From NCBI GenBank assembly GCA_964383635.1, contig CAYLIG010000003.1, forward strand, positions 32,097 through 96,096: a DNA stretch of 64,000 nucleotides, read 5' to 3'. Positions 52,517-64,000 of this stretch are shown in pieces. Both the position numbers and the translations under genes were made by a program. Position 1 is the first letter of the stretch. The number at the start of each line of letters is the position of its first letter. The DNA is from an uncultured Christensenella sp. GTDB lineage: Bacteria > Bacillota > Clostridia > Christensenellales > CAG-138. The notes below the pieces were generated by a model. It was not told the DNA's origin. It did not search any database and saw nothing but the letters and a program-made list of their open reading frames with translations.

Positions 52517-54541
52517 ATGGGATACACCGCTTTACTCAACATGAAGGAACGAAACCGCGCCGATTACGGGGTGCAAGATTCCGTGCGCATCCCAGAGCTT
52601 CCGAAGTCTAAACGGCGCTATGGAGCAGAAGCCCTGTCCTTTCTGCGCGAGAGCTGCGAGGATCTGAAATTTGACACAAGCCCCGAGCGGAACAGCCTTT
52701 CCGATTCCGACGGTAGAAGCTCCGGGAAAAACCTGATTCCGTTCAACATGGAGCGCGACCTTGACCGTCTCAGCTTCGAGACGGCAGTCGGCAGGTTTCT
52801 CGCCTCCGGTTCGAAGGAGGATGCCTTCGATATCTACTACTGTTACTGCGAGATATTTAAGCCTTTCGGCTCGGGTTATGATTCCACAGGGCTGCTGCTT
52901 GAGCTTTTGAGCGAACACGAGTCCAACGCCAGTTCGCTTTTAATGAAGCACCGCGACCACTATTCTCACAGCGTCTATGTGTTTCTGATCGGGCTGGCAA
53001 TCTATAAAAACCACGCGGGGTTCCGAACCGCATACAACACCAAATACGGCTTTGCGGAAGGCAAGGAAGCCGCCTGTCATTTCCTCGAGTTCTGGGGGCT
53101 GACGTCCTTGTTTCACGACGTCGGCTATCCGTTTGAGATTGCGCACCAGCAGATGAAAGCGTATGTCTGCAAGCTGGACAAGAGCAATAACGACGCGTAT
53201 GGCTTTGCGCCCTATGTGTCCTATCGAAACATGGACGAGTTCGCCATTTCAAGGCTGGGCGACCTGAACGATCTCTACGCAAAAGCGATTACCGAACGAC
53301 TGAGCGGGCGCTATCTGACCCGCACGGAGGTCGAGCCTTATTATGCCGAGCACAGCCTGCGAAAATCTCTGAAAGACCGCGCCATCCATGAAAACCCCGC
53401 GGAAAAGGACTATCTCTACATGGATCACGCCTATTTCAGCGGGCTGATCATGGCAAAGACGTTTCTGTGCAGTCATAAGGAAATCGGACGCTATGAACAG
53501 CTGCCGGCTCCGGCGCTAGATGCCTTTTGCGCCATCATCCTGCACAACAGCCTCTTTAAATTCACAATGCGCTCCTTCCTGCACACGTCAGAACCGCTCC
53601 GCCTATCGGACGGTCAGCCGCTTGCGTATCTTTTGATGCTCTGCGACGAGATGCAGTGCTGGGACAGGACTTCCTACGGGCAGAACAGCCGCAGCGGCAT
53701 CTATGCCTTTGATTTTGACATCGACTTCACCAGGGATGGAATACGCTGGATTTACTATTACGACAAGACCTATCAAAGCAAGGTCTGCGCAGCAAAATCC
53801 TATCAGGATATGCTGCACGACGGATACACAAAAAAGTCCGGCGCGATCCGGGAAAACCGCAGTAAATTCGCAGACGACATCGACGAGATTATCAGCGTAA
53901 AGGATATCGTTCCCTCGTTCGAGCCAAACGTCAAACTGCCGGATCCCAGCGATATCATCGAAGTTTGCATCGAGGACAAGCAAAAAAAGACCGGCCTGTA
54001 TCTCTCCGACAGCAATTACCTGAACCTCTATCGATTTGCGCTCGCGCTCAACGGGCGTTACGCCGGCGCAAAGACCGACGACGAGATGAGAAAGGCGTTC
54101 GAGGAATGCCTGTCCCTGGAATACAAGCTCTCCAACATCGCGCAGGCAAAGGGATTTGCCGCGCAGTTGGAGTCCATCGGCTGCTTCTACACCGATCGGG
54201 CGGTGGATTATACCCCCGTGACAGATTTCAAGGCGCTGACCAAAGAAGCGGGACACGAGGATGATCTGACGAATATCGCCATTGCCGAGCACGAACGCTG
54301 GTGCGTCGAAAAGCGCGCGATGGGATGGGATTACGGCGTCGGTCATGTCGGCGCGATCACGCTGGAGAGCGGCAAAAAGAAGAACGACGCCGTGATGCGG
54401 GAGCATCTGCGGCTGCATCACGACCTCGTAGACTACTCCGGGTTGGAGGCGGAAGAGCGCTTTAAGGATTCCGATCCAATGGAGCAGATGCTGGAGCTGA
54501 TACGCGAATACGACGGACTGACGATCTACAGAATGCACTGA
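52517..54541 (+). CDS. HD-superfamily phosphohydrolase fused to a C-terminal RyR (ryanodine-receptor repeat) domain
   Basis: HRDHYSHS..V...G, LFHDVGYP, DHAYFS, IILHN, LCDEMQCWDR; C-terminal AEHERW...K...GW.YG...H.DLV.Y..L...E..KD. Confidence 0.72.
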   Translation: MGYTALLNMKERNRADYGVQDSVRIPELPKSKRRYGAEALSFLRESCEDLKFDTSPERNSLSDSDGRSSGKNLIPFNMERDLDRLSFETAVGRFLASGSKEDAFDIYYCYCEIFKPFGSGYDSTGLLLELLSEHESNASSLLMKHRDHYSHSVYVFLIGLAIYKNHAGFRTAYNTKYGFAEGKEAACHFLEFWGLTSLFHDVGYPFEIAHQQMKAYVCKLDKSNNDAYGFAPYVSYRNMDEFAISRLGDLNDLYAKAITERLSGRYLTRTEVEPYYAEHSLRKSLKDRAIHENPAEKDYLYMDHAYFSGLIMAKTFLCSHKEIGRYEQLPAPALDAFCAIILHNSLFKFTMRSFLHTSEPLRLSDGQPLAYLLMLCDEMQCWDRTSYGQNSRSGIYAFDFDIDFTRDGIRWIYYYDKTYQSKVCAAKSYQDMLHDGYTKKSGAIRENRSKFADDIDEIISVKDIVPSFEPNVKLPDPSDIIEVCIEDKQKKTGLYLSDSNYLNLYRFALALNGRYAGAKTDDEMRKAFEECLSLEYKLSNIAQAKGFAAQLESIGCFYTDRAVDYTPVTDFKALTKEAGHEDDLTNIAIAEHERWCVEKRAMGWDYGVGHVGAITLESGKKKNDAVMREHLRLHHDLVDYSGLEAEERFKDSDPMEQMLELIREYDGLTIYRMH

Positions 54542-54620: not shown

Positions 54621-56477
54621 ATGGGAATTCTTGACAAGATCAAAAGCAAAAAACCGCAGCAAACGAATGCCGCGGCCGCCGATTCCCCGGAAAATCTGCT
54701 CGTCCCCGGGATAGGCCGCATCCCCTTTCCGGCATACCGCGGAAAAGAGCCGTATATCTTCATCAGCTATGCGCACAGGGATTCCGACATTGTGTTCCCT
54801 GAGATCAAGCGTTTCAACGAACAAGGATACCGGGTTTGGTACGACGAAGGAATCTCTCCCGGAAACGAATGGACGGACGAAATTGCGGACGCGCTTTCGG
54901 GCTGCTTTCTCTTCATTGTGATGATGACCCCGAACGCCGTCGACTCCCACAACGTACAAAACGAGATTAATTACGCAATCGACGAGCGGAAACCATTCGT
55001 CGCCATCCATCTGGTTGAAACCAACCTACGGGGCGGGCTGAAGCTGCAAATTGGAACCAAGCAGGCAATTCTCAAATATAACATGACGCAAAACGAGTAT
55101 ATTTACAAATATACTTCCGCCTTTGAGCGGCTCGGCATGCGCTGCAATAACGCCGGTCAGGCCGCGGCTCCCGCTTCGCCTGTCAAGGCGCCGCCCGTCG
55201 ACGCGGCTTCGGCGGCGGAGCGTGAAGCGGCGCAAAAAAGAGTCGAACGGTTCGAGATCGAGCGGATCCAGAATTCGGAGGCAACGCTGATTGATTTCGA
55301 GTGGGCCGGGTCAGCCGTGAAAGTCTATCACGGAATTAAAAAGCGGTTTACCGTGCCCGACAAAGCGACGGGCATCCTATCGTTTGCTTTCAAGAGCCGT
55401 GATTATATCGAGCGGGTTACCCTGCCGAAAACCGTGACGCGGCTAGGCGCCGACTCTTTTTTCGATTGCCCGAATTTCGAACTCGCCGTAATCGAAAACG
55501 AAGCCGTCACGTTTGACGATCCCGGCGCGTTTTCCCTTTGCCCGAAGCTGACGGTGCAGTGCAAAAAAGACTCCGTGACGCACCAAAACCTGCAAAAAAC
55601 GTTTTCCGGGACGATTTCGTTCTTCGATGAGCCGGCAAAGGGACCGACGGCCGCGCCGAGCCCCGTCCAGAGCACGCCGCAAGCGCCTTCCGCCGCTATG
55701 GCCGCAGACGAAAAGAAGCATCCCTGGGGCGATTATGTTCCTATGGGCACGGCCTACATCACGCTGCTGGACGGCACGGTTCACGAAGCCATCGCAAACT
55801 CTCTGCTATGCTGCGCCACGGGCATAGAGGCCAGCGCGGGCAATTATCAGCGGCTGTACTCCGGGCTGGACAACCCATCCAGCGACTTCGCGTACAAACT
55901 TGAAAAAATGGTTTTGTTTGCGGACATGCAGTCTCTTTTTCGACGGGAAGACACGCTGATTGCGCGCGATTTCGACGACGAGGAGACGGTGATCCATCCG
56001 GTGAAAGGGATGACGCTCCGGTTTATCGACGGAACCGACGGCAAGAAATTCAACAGCATCGCAATCGACGATTTGCGGGAAATTACCTTCGAGCGTTTTA
56101 TCACGCCCGCGTTCGAGATCAGCAGCTGTCTGCTGACGTTTGACGAGGGCGCTTTGTCGGTTCCCTTTCCCTATTTGATCTTCAACGTCGATCTGAGCAG
56201 CAACGGAATACCGGAGATGACGCTTACCACCGATCTTTCGCCGGTCGCCGGTTTTCCGCTGACGCTGAAACGCATCCGTAAACTGACAATCGCTAAGCTG
56301 ATGAAGGCTGCCGTCATGTACAGCCCGCTTACCGAAGCGGAGATTGAAGTCGAGCTGAAAAACGGCGATACAAACCGCTTTACCATCAACCGCCGGATCA
56401 TGATACTGGCGCTCACCGGAAAGGGCGTGCTCAAAAGCTTCGGACTCGAAAAGCTCAAACGCATCGATATGCCATAA
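54621..56477 (+). CDS. TIR-domain protein with short BspA-like LRR block and an unrecognised C-terminal domain
   Basis: YIFISYAHRD...VWYDEGI..G.EW...IA.AL......MTPNA..S.NVQNEI.YA (TIR_2, Glu at 54962-54964); central VTLPKTVTRLG..SF..C; no signal peptide. Confidence 0.82.
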   Translation: MGILDKIKSKKPQQTNAAAADSPENLLVPGIGRIPFPAYRGKEPYIFISYAHRDSDIVFPEIKRFNEQGYRVWYDEGISPGNEWTDEIADALSGCFLFIVMMTPNAVDSHNVQNEINYAIDERKPFVAIHLVETNLRGGLKLQIGTKQAILKYNMTQNEYIYKYTSAFERLGMRCNNAGQAAAPASPVKAPPVDAASAAEREAAQKRVERFEIERIQNSEATLIDFEWAGSAVKVYHGIKKRFTVPDKATGILSFAFKSRDYIERVTLPKTVTRLGADSFFDCPNFELAVIENEAVTFDDPGAFSLCPKLTVQCKKDSVTHQNLQKTFSGTISFFDEPAKGPTAAPSPVQSTPQAPSAAMAADEKKHPWGDYVPMGTAYITLLDGTVHEAIANSLLCCATGIEASAGNYQRLYSGLDNPSSDFAYKLEKMVLFADMQSLFRREDTLIARDFDDEETVIHPVKGMTLRFIDGTDGKKFNSIAIDDLREITFERFITPAFEISSCLLTFDEGALSVPFPYLIFNVDLSSNGIPEMTLTTDLSPVAGFPLTLKRIRKLTIAKLMKAAVMYSPLTEAEIEVELKNGDTNRFTINRRIMILALTGKGVLKSFGLEKLKRIDMP

Positions 56478-56529
56478 TAGCGCCCGGTGATTTGCGGAAC
56501 GGATTACGGTTGTCGCAGGAGGTAAATCT

Positions 56530-58263
56530 ATGAACTCTTCGGATCAATCCTATTTGAGCCGCAGGCCTTTCCCAGCATATCGCGGGGATGGAGCGTATGT
56601 ATTTGTCAGCTATTCCCATATGGACTCCAAAGAAGTCTTTCAAGAGCTCATCGAATTTCATCGTCAGGGATATCCCGTCTGGTACGACGAAGGCATCGAG
56701 GCGGGCAGTAAATGGAGCGACGAAATTGCAGCCGCAATTTCCAACTGCGCTCTGTTTATCGTGTTTTTAACGCCGAACTCCGCCGGTTCGGAAAACGTTC
56801 AGGACGAAATAGATTTCGCCATTTCCGAAAACAGAAAGTTGATTGCAATCCTGCTTGAAGAAACCGAACTCACCGGTGGGATGAAAATGAAGCTGCAGCG
56901 GCGGCAGGCGATTTTAAAATACGCCGTCCCTGAAGACGAGTACCGATATAAATATTTAGCCGCGTTTGTTTCCTGCGATATTCCTGCGTTAAATGAGATC
57001 AAAAACGAGCAATTTACGAGTCTCGCTTCCCCTATGCGCGCGTCTTCGGGCTCGCCCGCCGCGGGTGATTCGGTCACGCTGGAGTTCGTCAGCGGCCCGC
57101 TCTGCTCACAGCGTTTTTCGTATGACACGAAGACGGAGGTTACGCTCGGTCACGGCGCGAACTGCGACATCATCATTCCGGAAAGCACGGTGTCCGGCCG
57201 TCACTGCCTGTTTCGGATTTCTCCGCCTTCGGTTACGGTTCAGGACTGCGGAAGCAAAAACGGAACTTCCGTAAACGGTACGCTGATCGGCAGCCGCACG
57301 CTTTGCCAAGACGGCGGCTCTCCGGCAAAAGATCTTGCGAGCGGCGATACCGTCAAGCTAAGCAGCAAATGCTCCCTGATCGTCCACATACAGTCCGAAC
57401 AGACCATGACCGACGAGGGTGACGAAGCCACATTCACCGACGTATCCGCCAGCGGATCGGCGCAAGGAAGCGGGCGCACGACGTCCCGATGTTTTGATTC
57501 CGATCTGTTTGAATATGGGTTTTGCTTTGGAGGCAGAAGCGATGCCGGCCCGGTGCGCAGCGAAAATCAGGACGCGCTCGCTCCGTGCCCGGACTGCGCT
57601 TTCTTTGCCGTACTGGACGGCGTGGGCGGCGTTGCCCACGGTAAGGAAGCCGCCCGCTATCTTTCAGAACAGCTCCCGAAGGAGATACGCTCGCTCGCAG
57701 AGCGGCTTGCGGGCGACGCCTCCGCTTCGAAAGCCGCGCTGCTGCTAAGAAGAGCAATCATCGAGCTGAGCGGCACTCTCTACGCAGAATACAACGCCAG
57801 CGGTGAAACCGACTACTCCGCCGCCCTTGCCTGCCTCTGGCTCGTCGGCGGCAGCGCAGTCGTGCTCCACATGGGCGATTGCCGGGCATATATCCTGCCC
57901 AAGGACTCCGGCCATCTGCTCTGCCTGACGAAAGATCACAACCGCGCTTACGAGGCGATCGCATCGGGCGCCATGACGGCGGATGAAGCGCACGCCGCGG
58001 GTCTTTCCTCCCGGCTCACCCGATTTGTCGGCATGACTCCCCCGGCTCTGCCGGACGTGGACGTCTATCCCGTCACGCCCGGCGATCAATTCCTGCTTTG
58101 CTCCGACGGACTGTATTCCGCCGTCGCCGAAAGCGAGCTTGCCAGAATGATGCGCGAGGGCATGCACGAGGAGGAGATTCCCAACCGAATGGTGCAAACC
58201 GCCTGCGACGCAGGCGCGCGGGACAATGTAACGGCCCAATATGTCATGATACTGGGAAAGTAA
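56530..58263 (+). CDS. TIR-FHA-PP2C phosphatase fusion
   Basis: TIR (YVFVSYSH...VWYDEGI...NVQDEI); FHA (LGHG..CD...VSGRH...DCGSKNGT.VNG); PP2C (SD.G.VR.ENQD, LDGVGG, HMGDCRAY, LTKDH, LLCSDGL, GARDNVT). Confidence 0.88.
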   Translation: MNSSDQSYLSRRPFPAYRGDGAYVFVSYSHMDSKEVFQELIEFHRQGYPVWYDEGIEAGSKWSDEIAAAISNCALFIVFLTPNSAGSENVQDEIDFAISENRKLIAILLEETELTGGMKMKLQRRQAILKYAVPEDEYRYKYLAAFVSCDIPALNEIKNEQFTSLASPMRASSGSPAAGDSVTLEFVSGPLCSQRFSYDTKTEVTLGHGANCDIIIPESTVSGRHCLFRISPPSVTVQDCGSKNGTSVNGTLIGSRTLCQDGGSPAKDLASGDTVKLSSKCSLIVHIQSEQTMTDEGDEATFTDVSASGSAQGSGRTTSRCFDSDLFEYGFCFGGRSDAGPVRSENQDALAPCPDCAFFAVLDGVGGVAHGKEAARYLSEQLPKEIRSLAERLAGDASASKAALLLRRAIIELSGTLYAEYNASGETDYSAALACLWLVGGSAVVLHMGDCRAYILPKDSGHLLCLTKDHNRAYEAIASGAMTADEAHAAGLSSRLTRFVGMTPPALPDVDVYPVTPGDQFLLCSDGLYSAVAESELARMMREGMHEEEIPNRMVQTACDAGARDNVTAQYVMILGK

Positions 58264-58294: not shown

Positions 58295-61200
58295 ATGAAA
58301 GACGATAAAAATAATATTGACCGCACGCTCACCGATATCGAGCGGACAGCCACCGACACGCCGACAAACACCGATATCGAACCGACGCTGACCGACGCGA
58401 CGCAGGCGGACGCCGCGCGCCGCCAGAGTGCCGCGCCGGCAGGCGCGCCGGACAAGCAATCGTTTGACAAGGGCAGCGTGCTGCTTGGCACCTATGAAGT
58501 TCTCTCCGATCCGATTCAGGGCGGCATGGGCGTTGTGTACAGGGTTCACCACAGCGGCTGGAATGTGGATCTTGCGGTAAAGCGCCCCAAGGAGAGCTAC
58601 TTTCAATCGGACCGGCAGAAGGAAAACTTCGTCATGGAGTGCGAGCGCTGGATCAATCTCGGCCTCCACCCCAACATCGTGTCCTGCTATTATGTCCGCG
58701 AACTGGACGGGGTTCCGAGCGTCTTCTCGGAGTGGATGGACGGCGGCAGCCTGGCCGACCAGATCAAAAGCGGAGCGCTGTATGAAGGAACGGATCAGGA
58801 CGTGCGCAAGCGTCTGCTGGATATCGCCATCCAGTTTGCCCGCGGCTTACAGTATTCCCATAAAAACGGGCTCATCCATCAGGACGTTAAGCCCGGAAAC
58901 CTGATGCTGACCAGAGCGGGCGATGCGAAGGTGACGGATTTCGGCATCGCGGGCGGCGGCAACGCGGAACGCGCGCAAACATGGAGCAACGCGTTTACGC
59001 GCGAATATGCCAGCGCAGAGCAGCAGTCAAAGGGCGTGTTTACCCCGAAAACGGACATCTACAGCTGGGCGGTTTCCATACTGATGCTGTATTACGGCAG
59101 GCGTCTGTGGCAAAACGGCATCGACGCGGGACTGGCGTTTCAGCAGCACGCACAGCAGGCAAGGGTGCCCCTGTCCGATGATCTCTCCTCGCTGCTCGGC
59201 AGCTGCCTTGAGCAGGATCCGGCCAATCGTCCGGACGGCTTTGACGCGGTTCTGGTCAGGCTGCTCGGCGAATACGCGGCGCAGACCGGAGCGCCCTATT
59301 TTCGCGAGGAACCGACTGCTGCGGCTGATACGGCGGACAGTCTCAACAACCGCGCGCTCAGCTTTCTGGATCTTGGCAAACCGGAACAGGCGCAGCGGCT
59401 CTGGGACAAAGCGCTGCGGATGGAAACCAATCAGATCGCCTGCACCTGCAACCAGCAGCTTTGGCTCTGGCGCAACGCGAAGATCACCGACGCGGCGGCA
59501 GCGCAGACACTCCGCGCGCTATATGATAAAAGCGGCGCGCCGGAGGCCGCAAAGGCGCTGCTCTCGCTCTACATGGAAGCCGGTCAATATGAAGAAGCGA
59601 GAGAATTTTCAAAAATCCCCGCCGTGCGGCCGCTCATCACCACCGATCGAAATTGGCAGGACGAACTTTTAAAGACATCCCGGTTTACGCTGAATTTTTC
59701 CGATACGCTAAAACACGAGGTCACATCCGCCGCGCTGCTTTCAGATAATACGCTTCTTGTGGCGGATGGTTCGAACTATCTGCGCAGATTTCATCCTGAA
59801 AGCGGCTCTTTCATCGAAGCCATCGACACCAAGAGCATACTCGGCATCGACGCGGATCGGCTCATGGCCGATCCTGTTCGCGGCGGATGCTATGTCTTTG
59901 CCTCCAACAGCGACCGCGCAAACGGAGCACAGCCGACGTTCCTTTCGAGAATGATCGGGGACACAATCGCGGCCCGGTTTAACGTGCCGAAGCGTCCCGT
60001 CTCCTATCAGGTCTCCGCGGGAAACCCAAGGAGTGTAGATATGCCGTTTTATCGTCTTGCCGAGGTCTGGCTGTCGGAAGACGGAACGACCCTGTTCGCT
60101 CTTGCGGATCATCAATATAACTGCAGCTATGACGATACGAACTGGAACGACTGGTATACACACGCCTGGAACGCGGATACCGGCGAATACAAAGGCTCGG
60201 AGCATTATGACGACTTCTATGACGCATGGGCCCCCTACGAAACGCTGTCCGTATTCGGAAAATACAAGATGCGCTGCGAACGATCCACCTACCTGCTGTT
60301 TGAACAAGAAAGCGGAAGATGTCTCAGAACGCTGAACGTGTATACAGGCGCGGGTTCTTCGCGCGGCTTTTCTCAAGGGAAGTGCAGCTTCTCGGCGGAC
60401 GAGCGGTTTTGGGTGGTTCCCCAGGCCGAAGGGCCTCTGGACGTGGGATTGTATTCTTTGTCCGCTTCCCGCGCCGCGTCCCAGCTGTTCCTTTCAAAAA
60501 TCACCTCCACCGCGGAAGCAGCGCGACTGAAACAAGAAAAAATCGCGCTGAAGAGCGCTTTTGAAAGCGCCGTTGAAAAGCAGGATATGGAACGGGCAAT
60601 CGAGATATTCAGCCGCTTTCGTGATCAACCGGGAAACGGAAACGCCGAAGAAACCGTCGCGATGGAGCGACGGCTGTCAAAATTTTGTATCCGTGCGGGC
60701 GTTCATCACGCCGCCAGAGAGTCTGCCGGGGATGTCGCGCTTGCCGGGGAGCCTTATCGTCGTCTGGACACAAAGTCCGCCTTATACCGCAAGGCAGAAA
60801 AATATTTCAGCAAAGATTCCGTTGCGCGTATTCGCACCGAATACGACACCTGGCTGCACAAGCAAAAATATGACGCCTATCTGAGTCGGGACGACGGCCG
60901 GTTTGTGATTGCGCACTACGGCGCAGCAACCGCAAAATCCACAGATGTAAATTTTACGCTGGTGCGCTTTGACACGAAGAATATGGCGCACGAGACGCTT
61001 GGCTGGGGCTGCGCTCTGACGCCGGACGGGAGAATTGTTGCCGGTTTGATCGATCACTCCATTACCTTCCAGTCGGCGGGACAGGCGGCAAAAACGAAAA
61101 TCCCGACGGGCATAGAGGTTTTTCCAAAGGAAATTACCTTTTCGCCCGACTCGCGCTTTGCCTGCTGCAAAGGCAGCGTCGGAAACGCCAAAATGATTTG

Positions 61201-61579
61201 TCTGATGTCGGTTCCGCCCGAATCATCCGTTTTTCGCATTCCCGTCGAATCCTATATCCTCAGCCCGCTCTCCTTTTCCGAGGACGGGTTCTATCTGCTC
61301 GATGAAAACCGCGAAGTCTCGTATCGGCTCAGCTATACCTACTCTTTCCCCGGCTGGGCGGACTGGGACGACGGCGCCGCCCCGTATCTGGATTCGTTCG
61401 TTTTCTTCCATCCGAATGAAAGTCCATCGGATGTTCAGGATCTGACGCGTGAGCTGCAAAGCCGCGGCTTTGGGTGGCTTCGCCCGGACGCGGTAAACGA
61501 GCGCCTCCGTCTGGCGCGGCGGGAAACGAGCAAACAGCTCTTTGGGCTTTCATTCAAAAAACCGACCTCGACCAGATAA
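58295..61579 (+). CDS. Hanks-type Ser/Thr protein kinase with TPR-like segment and C-terminal beta-propeller-like region
   Basis: GGMGVVY, AVK, HPNIV, HQDVKPGN, DFG, TREYASAEQ, TDIYSW; LNNRALSFLDLG..EQA..LW (TPR); FS.D / LTPDG blade repeats. Confidence 0.9.
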   Translation: MKDDKNNIDRTLTDIERTATDTPTNTDIEPTLTDATQADAARRQSAAPAGAPDKQSFDKGSVLLGTYEVLSDPIQGGMGVVYRVHHSGWNVDLAVKRPKESYFQSDRQKENFVMECERWINLGLHPNIVSCYYVRELDGVPSVFSEWMDGGSLADQIKSGALYEGTDQDVRKRLLDIAIQFARGLQYSHKNGLIHQDVKPGNLMLTRAGDAKVTDFGIAGGGNAERAQTWSNAFTREYASAEQQSKGVFTPKTDIYSWAVSILMLYYGRRLWQNGIDAGLAFQQHAQQARVPLSDDLSSLLGSCLEQDPANRPDGFDAVLVRLLGEYAAQTGAPYFREEPTAAADTADSLNNRALSFLDLGKPEQAQRLWDKALRMETNQIACTCNQQLWLWRNAKITDAAAAQTLRALYDKSGAPEAAKALLSLYMEAGQYEEAREFSKIPAVRPLITTDRNWQDELLKTSRFTLNFSDTLKHEVTSAALLSDNTLLVADGSNYLRRFHPESGSFIEAIDTKSILGIDADRLMADPVRGGCYVFASNSDRANGAQPTFLSRMIGDTIAARFNVPKRPVSYQVSAGNPRSVDMPFYRLAEVWLSEDGTTLFALADHQYNCSYDDTNWNDWYTHAWNADTGEYKGSEHYDDFYDAWAPYETLSVFGKYKMRCERSTYLLFEQESGRCLRTLNVYTGAGSSRGFSQGKCSFSADERFWVVPQAEGPLDVGLYSLSASRAASQLFLSKITSTAEAARLKQEKIALKSAFESAVEKQDMERAIEIFSRFRDQPGNGNAEETVAMERRLSKFCIRAGVHHAARESAGDVALAGEPYRRLDTKSALYRKAEKYFSKDSVARIRTEYDTWLHKQKYDAYLSRDDGRFVIAHYGAATAKSTDVNFTLVRFDTKNMAHETLGWGCALTPDGRIVAGLIDHSITFQSAGQAAKTKIPTGIEVFPKEITFSPDSRFACCKGSVGNAKMICLMSVPPESSVFRIPVESYILSPLSFSEDGFYLLDENREVSYRLSYTYSFPGWADWDDGAAPYLDSFVFFHPNESPSDVQDLTRELQSRGFGWLRPDAVNERLRLARRETSKQLFGLSFKKPTSTR

Positions 61580-61590
61580 GGAGCTGCGCT

Positions 61591-62259
61591 TTGGGCATTC
61601 CCATCATCGTCGGCGTCACCGGCCATCGCGACCTGCGTCGGCAGGACGTTCCCCTTCTTCGCGAACTGGTGACCGGGGAACTGAAAAAGTTCATCGAACG
61701 GTATCCAAATTCGAAATTCACGCTGCTGGATTCCATTGCGTCCGGCGCGGATTCACTTTGCGCCGAAGCTGCTCTGGCGCTTGACATGGAGCTTGTCTGT
61801 CCGCTGCCGATGCCGGTTTTTGAATACCGAAAGGACTTTTCAAAGGTCGAAGCGGCAGCGTTCGACGCTTTCATTCAAAGCGCATCGGACGTATTTGTCG
61901 TTCCGAATTCGGAACCGCTGCCAAACAGGCCGACGCGCGATTTCTATTATCGTCAGGCGGGAATCTATGTGGCGCAGCAAAGCCATTTCCTTCTTGCATT
62001 ATGGGACGGAACGCCCGCAAAGCAGGACGGCTGCGGCACCGCGGAAGCGGTCGAATTTGCGCTTCGGAAAATCAATCAGAATGAATCCGATTGCCCCGGG
62101 GCCGCGGACTGCGGCGCGGTGCTCCATGTGATAACTTCAAGACGCGGCGCAAAGGACGCGCCGCCTGCCTGCGTGCGGCTCATCGAACGCGAACCGGGCC
62201 TTCTAAACGAAACTCTGCGCAAAATCGACGCTTTGAATTCGGCAAACCGGAGCTGCTGA
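61591..62259 (+). CDS. Stand-alone SLOG-superfamily (YpsA/DprA-like Rossmannoid) nucleotide-binding protein
   Basis: TTG start after AGGAG; VGVTGHR, SIASGAD, PLP, YRQAG.YVA, LLALWDG, GCGTAEAV. Confidence 0.72.
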   Translation: MGIPIIVGVTGHRDLRRQDVPLLRELVTGELKKFIERYPNSKFTLLDSIASGADSLCAEAALALDMELVCPLPMPVFEYRKDFSKVEAAAFDAFIQSASDVFVVPNSEPLPNRPTRDFYYRQAGIYVAQQSHFLLALWDGTPAKQDGCGTAEAVEFALRKINQNESDCPGAADCGAVLHVITSRRGAKDAPPACVRLIEREPGLLNETLRKIDALNSANRSC

Positions 62260-63580: not shown

Positions 63581-63678
63581 CCGCGCCGGTATATTTTGTT
63601 CAAAGTAAAAAACCGCTTGCCGCTGTCCGGTTTGGCTGTGATATGATAAGAGAAATGCATGAAACGGGTGATGAAATC

Positions 63679-64000
63679 GTGCCTCCCCCAACTTCATCTT
63701 TCGGGGTAACCACAAGTACGCTTCTTGAGCGGCTTCGCGCCGGACAGTCGATCACCGAGTTCTTTCAGGAAAACCGGAACGACATCTGCGAATTTCCTCT
63801 GGACGAATGCCTGAAGGAATACATCCTGCAGAAGCATGTTTCAAACGCGAAGCTCATTCGGGAAAGCGGAATGAACCGCAGATATTTCTACGACATCCTT
63901 TCCGGCAAGCGCCGTCCCGATGAGAACTATGTGCTGCGGCTTCTTCTTGCGCTGCACGCGTCGATTGAGGACGTGCAATGGCTTTTACGCTGCGCGCGCT
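63679..64000 (+). CDS. XRE/Cro-like HTH protein (3' end beyond the window; not in the ORF track)
   Basis: Manual translation: MPPPTSSFGVTTSTLLERL...LDECLKEYI.QK.VSNAKLIRESGMNRRYFYDILSGKRRPD.NYVLRLLLAL. Alternative in-frame ATG at 63655. Confidence 0.75.
   Translation, partial: MPPPTSSFGVTTSTLLERLRAGQSITEFFQENRNDICEFPLDECLKEYILQKHVSNAKLIRESGMNRRYFYDILSGKRRPDENYVLRLLLALHASIEDVQWLLRCAR

Follow-up and report, generated by a model that had tools for sequence, protein, structure and literature searches.

To our knowledge, the on/off control of bacterial TIR domains has been worked out for few systems. SPARTA is controlled by an Argonaute, TIR-SAVED and Cat1 are controlled by cyclic oligonucleotides, and the phage cues that act on ThsB are unknown. 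The TIR domains of SPARTA, TIR-1 and SARM1 are enzymes that consume nicotinamide adenine dinucleotide (NAD) and are switched on by oligomerisation. In the type VI secretion system (T6SS) of Pseudomonas, the sensor Ser/Thr kinase PpkA makes phosphothreonines, the FHA protein Fha1 reads them, which leads to assembly of the machine, and the PP2C phosphatase PppA reverses the process. The Arabidopsis protein KAPP binds to receptor kinases once these are phosphorylated and removes their phosphates. Type III Thoeris systems comprise several TIR proteins and a SLOG effector, and type VII systems comprise a TIR protein and a SLATT effector and use a cyclic ADP-ribose signal (bioRxiv 10.64898/2026.01.22.701046, 10.64898/2025.12.03.692087). 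A systematic survey of TIR signalling systems from 2025 contains no mention of kinases, phosphatases or FHA domains. Here we describe P0001, a protein of an uncultured Christensenella sp. (CAG-138) that joins a TIR, an FHA and a PP2C domain, and the Ser/Thr kinase encoded next to it. Both genes lie in the window, the whole 64,000-nucleotide stretch of DNA that was analysed (assembly GCA_964383635.1, contig CAYLIG010000003.1, positions 32,097–96,096 of the forward strand), and the genome that holds the window is 94.6% complete. The fusion is a real and rare architecture with a predicted mechanism, and it probably represents a rare and undescribed way in which phosphorylation turns TIR immune signalling on and off.

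Domain architecture of P0001

P0001 is encoded at positions 56530–58263 of the window by an open reading frame (ORF) of 577 amino acids with an ATG start; this gene and its neighbours in the window between 52517 and 62259 are on the plus strand. A Shine-Dalgarno sequence, AGGAGG (56517–56522), was read from the sequence 7 nucleotides before the ATG. Pfam assigns three domains in the order TIR_2, FHA and PP2C, all with scores far above the curated cut-offs, and chance is therefore of no concern. The first-pass annotation, made from the letters of the DNA, had placed a TIR with a conserved glutamate, an FHA and a complete PP2C active site in one chain, and the Pfam matches and alignments bear this out. 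In public records the fusion is named "PrpC" or "TIR domain-containing protein".

The TIR domain comprises residues 9–150 (56554–56979), including the N-terminal PFPAYxG extension of its subfamily. Pfam TIR_2 matches residues 24–113 with an E-value of 1.9e-17 (64.3 bits against a cut-off of 28), and ThsB_TIR matches just above its cut-off (22.2 against 21.2). The putative catalytic glutamate, E93 (56806–56808), is conserved in 97% of the 266 TIR segments that were excised and aligned to represent the subfamily. The WYD.G loop is conserved as well, with W51, Y52, D53 and G55 each present in 94–96% of the segments and E54 in 76%, and so are S87 and A97. A profile of the subfamily matched C. elegans TIR-1 (3e-10), a BtTir-like chain (7uxr, 3e-9), Cat1 (2e-8), AbTir (4e-7) and SARM1 (1e-5) in the Protein Data Bank (PDB). 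In these alignments E93 falls on the glutamate of the TIR-1 motif WVHKELKCA, which we take to be the equivalent of SARM1 E642, and on those of Cat1 and the BtTir-like chain; the WYDE loop is common to the latter and P0001. The AlphaFold2 model of residues 9–160, with a predicted local distance difference test score (pLDDT) of 91.8, has five beta-alpha units arranged in the flavodoxin-like TIR fold. The top Foldseek matches of the model are the TIR domains of SPARTA TIR-APAZ, TIR-1 and SARM1, with a probability of 1.00 and TM-scores of 0.6–0.72. By every computational criterion available, the TIR of P0001 is predicted to be of the enzymatic, NAD-cleaving type.

The FHA domain spans residues 181–292 (57070–57405), and its Pfam match covers residues 204–260 (E 1.3e-13; 51.6 bits against a cut-off of 20.7). 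Among solved structures it matches the FHA domains of GarA, OdhI and KAPP (1mzk, E 4e-6). Alignment to these proteins shows that S222, R224, H225 and N244 are kept and that H207 takes the place of the canonical arginine. The residue at this position is arginine in related TIR-FHA-kinase and FHA-kinase-PP2C proteins. The linker between the FHA and PP2C domains (57403–57441) carries two TxxD motifs, at T292 and T301, which a motif scan of four orthologues found to be conserved.

The phosphatase domain, of the PP2C (PPM) type, occupies residues 336–571 (57535–58242). Pfam PP2C_2 matches residues 344–544 (E 6e-15; 55.8 bits against a cut-off of 24), the Pfam PP2C match reaches residue 567, and NCBIfam Stp1_PP2C matches with 8e-37. 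The domain aligns end to end with cyanobacterial tPphA (2j82, E 7e-20) and over its full length with mycobacterial and staphylococcal PP2Cs; the E-values of these alignments, tPphA included, range from 1e-20 to 1e-14. The full set of metal-binding motifs, NQD, DGVGG, GDCR, SDG and DN, is found in P0001 and conserved in its orthologues. Judged from these motifs, the PP2C active site is complete. An identity with the housekeeping phosphatase Stp1/IreP (NCBIfam NF033484) was considered and rejected, as the score of 127 bits compares with an equivalog cut-off of 230. A separate PP2C of 272 amino acids and of the housekeeping type is encoded elsewhere in the genome.

Distribution and conservation of the fusion

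A word-indexed search of 5.8 billion proteins recovered three other clusters at 90% identity that contain all three domains, and these orthologues are 67–69% identical to P0001. An exhaustive HMMER pass over 1.84 billion representatives at 50% identity recovered a single full-length representative. The architecture was checked by using the three domains as separate queries against the 150 best HMMER representatives, the 120 best word-search matches and the listed cluster members. Among the proteins checked, all those with TIR, FHA and PP2C domains belong to one clade of about 200 sequences. Two other permutations occurred once each among the matches: a TIR-FHA-kinase protein (P0178) with a TIR of the same subfamily, and an FHA-kinase-PP2C protein (P0131) with PP2C and FHA domains of the same type. 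A scan of the genome contigs with P0001 as the single query returned distant PP2C matches only and no new loci. Among the 40 species of the genus that were compared, the fusion occurs in one and is missing from the other 39, a patchy, accessory distribution. Full-text literature searches found no paper on a bacterial TIR joined with FHA and PP2C domains. The expectation that the architecture would be unfamiliar from characterised systems thus held: it is absent from the literature searched and confined to a single narrow clade.

Pairwise ratios of non-synonymous to synonymous substitution rates (dN/dS) among the orthologues are 0.07–0.25 for each of the TIR, FHA and PP2C domains and 0.15–0.55 for the two linkers. 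The low ratios in all three domains indicate that the whole chain is maintained by selection.

The partner kinase

The gene that follows the fusion, beginning 31 nucleotides after it, encodes a Ser/Thr kinase of 1094 amino acids (58295–61579) that consists of a TxxD-rich tail, a kinase domain (Pkinase, 8.8e-35), a TPR region recognised by weak matches and a C-terminal region of 640 residues. Orthologous loci of the fusion were compared at L001, L002-5, L025, L026 and L034, and the sequence of L026 ends at the fusion gene. An orthologous kinase lies within about 30 nucleotides 3' of the fusion in every locus that could be read, namely the window, L001, L002-5, L025 and L034. The catalytic lysine and aspartate and the DFG motif are intact, and HQD in place of HRD makes the enzyme a non-RD kinase. 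The non-RD type is characteristic of innate immune receptors in plants and animals. The non-RD motif HQDVKPGN (58877–58900, kinase residues 195–202) is also present in the orthologues, and the FHA-kinases of related clusters are RD kinases.

The N-terminal 454 residues of the kinase, which include the tail, the kinase domain and the TPR region, are 66% identical between lineages. The C-terminal region of about 640 residues cannot be aligned between lineages; it forms a WD40 propeller in L001, L002 and L034, and in the window kinase it has no Pfam match even at an E-value of 5. The disordered N-terminal tail (58325–58411) contains four to five TxxD motifs in the array RTLTD..T.TD..T.TDIE.TLTD, and is a candidate docking strip for FHA domains. 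The array is conserved in all four lineages, which are 66–69% identical. Kinases of related clusters in congeners, which are paired with a separate FHA-kinase protein, have a different tail. The first-pass annotation had suggested that phosphorylation controls TIR assembly. This part of its proposal remains plausible from the sequence, given the constant pairing of the fusion with an intact kinase that bears a conserved TxxD tail.

Proposed mechanism

Based on the domains of P0001 and its pairing with the kinase, we propose, with slightly less than even confidence, that P0001 is the subunit that serves as adaptor and enzyme in a TIR system gated by phosphorylation. The kinase would sense a trigger via its TPR and C-terminal regions and phosphorylate the threonines of its own TxxD tail, and maybe also the two TxxD sites in the linker of P0001. 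The FHA domains of several P0001 molecules would then dock on the multivalent strip of the tail. The docking would bring the TIR domains together, and they would become active on oligomerisation, as those of SARM1, SPARTA and AbTir do, and cleave NAD+. The fused PP2C would strip the phosphates, so that the assembly would be self-limiting and would need sustained kinase activity. In complete loci, of which L002 is the type, the TIR product is probably a signal derived from ADP-ribose that is read by a SLOG-SLATT membrane effector and would open it. Proteins with an RyR domain and with TIR and LRR domains, encoded next to the fusion, may be further parts of a Thoeris-like module. We speculate that the whole serves bacterial immunity: a receptor-like non-RD kinase would recruit and switch on a TIR NADase via phosphothreonine-FHA docking, the fused PP2C would act as a timer, and the signal would feed SLOG-SLATT. 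This fuller account is possible and is offered as a distinctly tentative one.

Neighbouring TIR-LRR protein

The gene upstream of the fusion encodes P0002, a TIR-LRR_5 protein (54621–56477; Pfam TIR_2 3.8e-17, LRR_5) with a second TIR of the same subfamily in which the glutamate is kept. Its C-terminal 278 residues have no Pfam match even at an E-value of 5. The TIR domains of P0001 and P0002 are 55% identical over 138 residues (E 1e-50), and they are the only two TIR_2 domains in this genome. The two had initially been called paralogues because both carry the N-terminal signature PFPAYxG..Y.F.SY.H. They do belong to one subfamily, but the signature is found throughout it (P13 in 90%, Y17 in 93% and G19 in 94% of the segments), including proteins with three to five tandem TIRs and TIR-TPR, TIR-LRR and TIR-kinase fusions. 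The signature was therefore rejected as the mark of a special pair. In the phylogenetic tree the TIRs of the fusion form a clade of their own (support 0.96–0.99), and the TIR of P0002 nests inside a different clade of 27 members. The two TIRs are therefore not recent duplicates.

It was also suggested that the two TIRs pair with each other to build a composite NADase, in which the LRRs would provide recognition and phosphorylation would control assembly. The shared subfamily, the 55% identity and the glutamate kept in both proteins are consistent with such heterotypic pairing, as is the adjacent and co-oriented arrangement of the two genes in the window, L025 and L026. Loci with several TIRs and proteins with three to five tandem TIRs are common in the subfamily, which suggests that cooperation between TIRs is usual. 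However, the two TIRs are not sister lineages. Moreover, the TIR-LRR gene is divergent and has another type of LRR in L002, is split in L025 and L026, and is lost in L001 and L034, whereas the fusion persists. An obligate composite NADase fits these data poorly, as in L002 the TIR-LRR gene is encoded on the other strand and in L001 and L034 it has decayed, with the fusion and the kinase still intact and subject to purifying selection. We consider heterotypic pairing improbable.

In the closest orthologous loci, L025 (1529–3753) and L026 (1187–3448), two ORFs take the place of a single TIR-LRR gene and a stretch of LRRs is duplicated, which suggests decay or rearrangement next to an intact fusion. 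Chains with three to five tandem TIRs of the same subfamily (P0125, P0127, P0130 and others) would pre-assemble TIR oligomers.

RyR and SLOG genes and the core of the locus

Upstream of the TIR-LRR gene lies a gene for a protein of 674 residues (52517–54541) with a C-terminal RyR domain, which was recognised by a profile match to RyR repeats in the PDB (6.5e-22). The N-terminal region of the protein contains invariant H/HD/H/H/D residues. These N-terminal 480 residues have no Pfam, NCBIfam or PDB sequence match, and an HD fold was not confirmed. Homologues of the RyR protein adjoin SLOG-SLATT genes in L002, L031, L029 and L024.

On the other side, 11 nucleotides after the kinase gene, begins the gene for a stand-alone SLOG protein of 222 residues (61591–62259), which corresponds to the N-terminal domain of a SLOG-SLATT family of about 545 residues. 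Profile searches with the SLOG domain sequence against the PDB gave no match. Its AlphaFold2 model (pLDDT 90.8) matched YpsA, ShosA, DprA, LOG proteins and the SLOG domain of ThsA in Foldseek, and the protein therefore has a SLOG fold. The SLOG-SLATT family has no Pfam annotation and numbers at least 368 clusters; its members have four transmembrane helices, and SLATT models matched 18 of the 22 that were sampled. The window copy does not have the SLATT half; the output here would therefore be NAD+ consumption alone, or the pathway would be crippled.

The complete form of the locus, L002, contains an HTH gene, the RyR protein, TIR-FHA-PP2C, a kinase-WD40 protein and SLOG-SLATT, with a TIR-LRR gene of the other LRR type on the opposite strand. 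At L001 and at L034, which lies on a contig of 2.64 Mb, only the fusion and the kinase are intact, and the upstream TIR-LRR gene is reduced to a remnant of 53–54 residues. The stable core of the locus is the pair of fusion and kinase, and its link to Thoeris-like parts is common but facultative.

The two-gene loci raise the main alternative to the proposed pathway. The fusion and the kinase may form a self-contained abortive-infection pair, in which the kinase would be the sensor and the TIR of P0001 an NAD+-depleting executioner, and the RyR, TIR-LRR and SLOG genes would belong to a separate, adjacent Thoeris-like system. L001 and L034 are what such a pair would look like, with both of its genes intact, the TIR-LRR gene decayed and neither RyR nor SLOG present, and purifying selection continues to act on the TIR in their lineage. 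The closest solved folds of the P0001 TIR are NAD-depleting TIRs, and the effector half of SLOG is missing in the window; both agree with an executioner role. On the other hand, in three of five locus types the RyR gene reads in the same direction as the pair, with only short gaps. The SLOG gene directly follows the kinase in both loci that keep RyR and have readable downstream DNA, the window and L002, and the TIR of P0001 belongs to the same subfamily as TIRs encoded beside SLOG-SLATT genes. A self-contained pair appears rather unlikely to us, although it is the strongest competitor of the phosphorylation-gated pathway.

Two modules combined in the locus

Parts of the locus occur separately in other genomes. 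SLOG-SLATT is encoded beside a TIR-WD40 protein in Alkalibacter mobilis, beside a TIR-propeller protein and an RyR-protein homologue in a metagenome-assembled genome (MAG) of Lachnospiraceae, and beside several TIR or TIR-like genes, two of them with LRRs, and a 69%-identical RyR protein next to AbiEii in a Bacillota MAG. The congener locus L024 (G020:C1:2688000-2704000) contains an RyR homologue, SLOG-SLATT, a TIR-Nudix fusion and a row of five TIR or TIR-like genes. These four loci have no kinase, and their combination of TIRs with SLOG-SLATT resembles the Thoeris types III and VII. Conversely, many congeners have clusters of an FHA-kinase, a PP2C of 260 residues (35–40% identical to P0001) and one to three STK-TPR-WD40 kinases (46–50% identical to the window kinase), and a TIR is absent from these clusters. 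Among the proteins of the window locus, TIR-FHA-PP2C alone carries parts from both modules. The locus looks like a merger of a kinase/FHA/PP2C module with a TIR/RyR/SLOG-SLATT module, with P0001 as the link between them.

Several of these loci have further features. In the Bacillota MAG (L031/L032, 913–9605), there are proteins with a TIR-like N-terminus, a hydrophobic and probably membrane-spanning segment and C-terminal LRRs, a layout like that of Toll-like receptors; they are encoded together with a TIR, an RyR protein and SLOG-SLATT, next to the AbiEii toxin-antitoxin pair. The two genes of the L024 row that were scanned carry internalin-type LRRs and four have degenerate TIR motifs; the row is a large multi-TIR, Thoeris-like array. 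The congener clusters at L020 and L021 (G036:C13, G003:C1) have two to three paralogous STK-TPR-WD40 kinases, with proteins of 400–550 residues encoded upstream, and several genomes encode a GGDEF-HD protein next to the cluster.

The congener clusters without TIR bring up a further alternative, in which the locus would be an ordinary, non-immune Ser/Thr phospho-signalling module. The TIR of P0001 would then be an interaction scaffold, and the PP2C-FHA part, similar to KAPP or Stp, would dephosphorylate the partner kinase. The occurrence of FHA-kinase, PP2C and STK-TPR-WD40 clusters in many congeners, some next to GGDEF-HD proteins, would agree with such a role, as would the metabolic and regulatory genes that flank the locus and the database name PrpC. 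However, the glutamate and WYDEG loop of the TIR, which are 94–97% conserved (E54 76%), speak against a scaffold, as does the purifying selection on the domain. The patchy accessory distribution in one of 40 species of the genus and the association with SLOG-SLATT and TIR-LRR genes, which are typical of conflict systems, also count against a non-immune role, and the genome has its separate housekeeping-type PP2C. We regard this explanation as quite unlikely. Both the non-immune scaffold and heterotypic TIR pairing are less likely than the phosphorylation-gated pathway and the self-contained pair.

About 1.4 kb downstream of the operon are genes for a small HTH_31 protein and for a Ser/Thr kinase-LRR_4 fusion of 665 residues that resembles receptor kinases (63643–63999 of the window and beyond; G000:C3:95739-98215; L028:2240-4716). 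Both may be part of the accessory region that holds the operon. The flanking MFS and GGDEF-HD genes have orthologues in disjoint sets of congeners, and a syntenic empty site could therefore not be identified.

Evidence against the proposed pathway

Several observations weigh against the phosphorylation-gated pathway, and the chief cautions on its mechanism are the histidine that replaces arginine in the FHA and a genomic neighbourhood that is neutral. In known FHA domains the arginine of the GR motif contacts the phosphate. The corresponding residue is histidine (H207, 57148–57150) in all 36 members of the fusion clade that were surveyed, which could weaken or change the binding of phosphopeptides. 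The genes that flank the locus belong to sugar utilisation, the TetR and MFS families and c-di-GMP signalling, and they form no recognisable defence island.

The phosphatase may not be essential, since several alleles have a truncated PP2C. At least seven alleles (P0400, P0402, P0404, P0406, P0407, P0411 and also P0409) have only 449–450 residues; their PP2C breaks off at about residue 438, which leaves TIR-FHA without a working phosphatase. One of the short alleles is on a contig of 283 kb, and an assembly artefact is therefore unlikely. The connection to an effector is also inconstant. Neither a remnant of the SLATT part downstream of the SLOG gene in the window nor another copy in the 94.6%-complete genome was found, and the effector half therefore seems to have been deleted. 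The two-gene loci L001 and L034 have neither SLOG nor RyR, and the link to SLOG-SLATT is therefore facultative. Finally, no role in defence is known for the kinase-PP2C-FHA clusters of congeners, which may serve ordinary signalling.

Implications

If the proposed pathway is correct, the assembly of a TIR enzyme would be written and erased by a kinase/phosphatase pair, which would be a new control principle in TIR immunity. It would join two bacterial toolkits that have so far been separate, eukaryote-like Ser/Thr signalling and NAD-derived immune signalling, and it would be a prokaryotic counterpart of signalling from a receptor kinase through an adaptor to a TIR. It would also be the first phosphorylation-gated production of a TIR signal that feeds a Thoeris-type SLOG-SLATT effector, and it would provide a compact, testable model for the setting of thresholds in abortive-infection systems. 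The split layout, with sensor repeats on the kinase and the TIR on the adaptor, in place of the single-chain TIR-WD40 of related loci, suggests that such pathways are built in a modular manner.

Comparison with known systems

The locus resembles Thoeris in that one or more TIR proteins with the catalytic glutamate are encoded beside a SLOG protein, as in the window, or beside SLOG-SLATT, as in loci of the L002 type. It differs from Thoeris in the kinase, FHA and PP2C, which occur in no described type, in the additional RyR-domain protein and in the truncation of the SLOG-SLATT effector in the window. The curated Thoeris models gave scores far below cut-off or weak ones, with NCBIfam ThcB4 at an E-value of 1.6e-4 (20.6 bits against a cut-off of 220) and PADLOC ThsB at 3e-3. 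As to a Thoeris effector, the window copy has a SLOG fold and no effector half, and the full SLOG-SLATT is present at L002.

SARM1/TIR-1, SPARTA TIR-APAZ and AbTir are the best profile and fold matches of the P0001 TIR, with the catalytic glutamate aligned. These proteins are activated by the sensing of NMN or NAD, by target binding of the Argonaute or by the formation of filaments, and we know of no TIR of these types with FHA recruitment or a phosphatase.

The PpkA/PppA/Fha1 system of the Pseudomonas T6SS follows the same logic as that proposed here; it consists of three separate proteins and its output is a secretion apparatus. The likeness is one of logic, and orthology is not claimed. KAPP and bacterial FHA-PP2C proteins share with P0001 the arrangement of an FHA domain N-terminal to a PP2C in one chain, which is encoded here together with its partner kinase. 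KAPP has a membrane anchor where P0001 has the TIR, recruits no enzyme domain along with it, and does not have the histidine that replaces the arginine in the FHA of P0001. The role that we propose for the FHA-PP2C half of P0001, docking on a phosphorylated kinase and dephosphorylating it, is that of KAPP.

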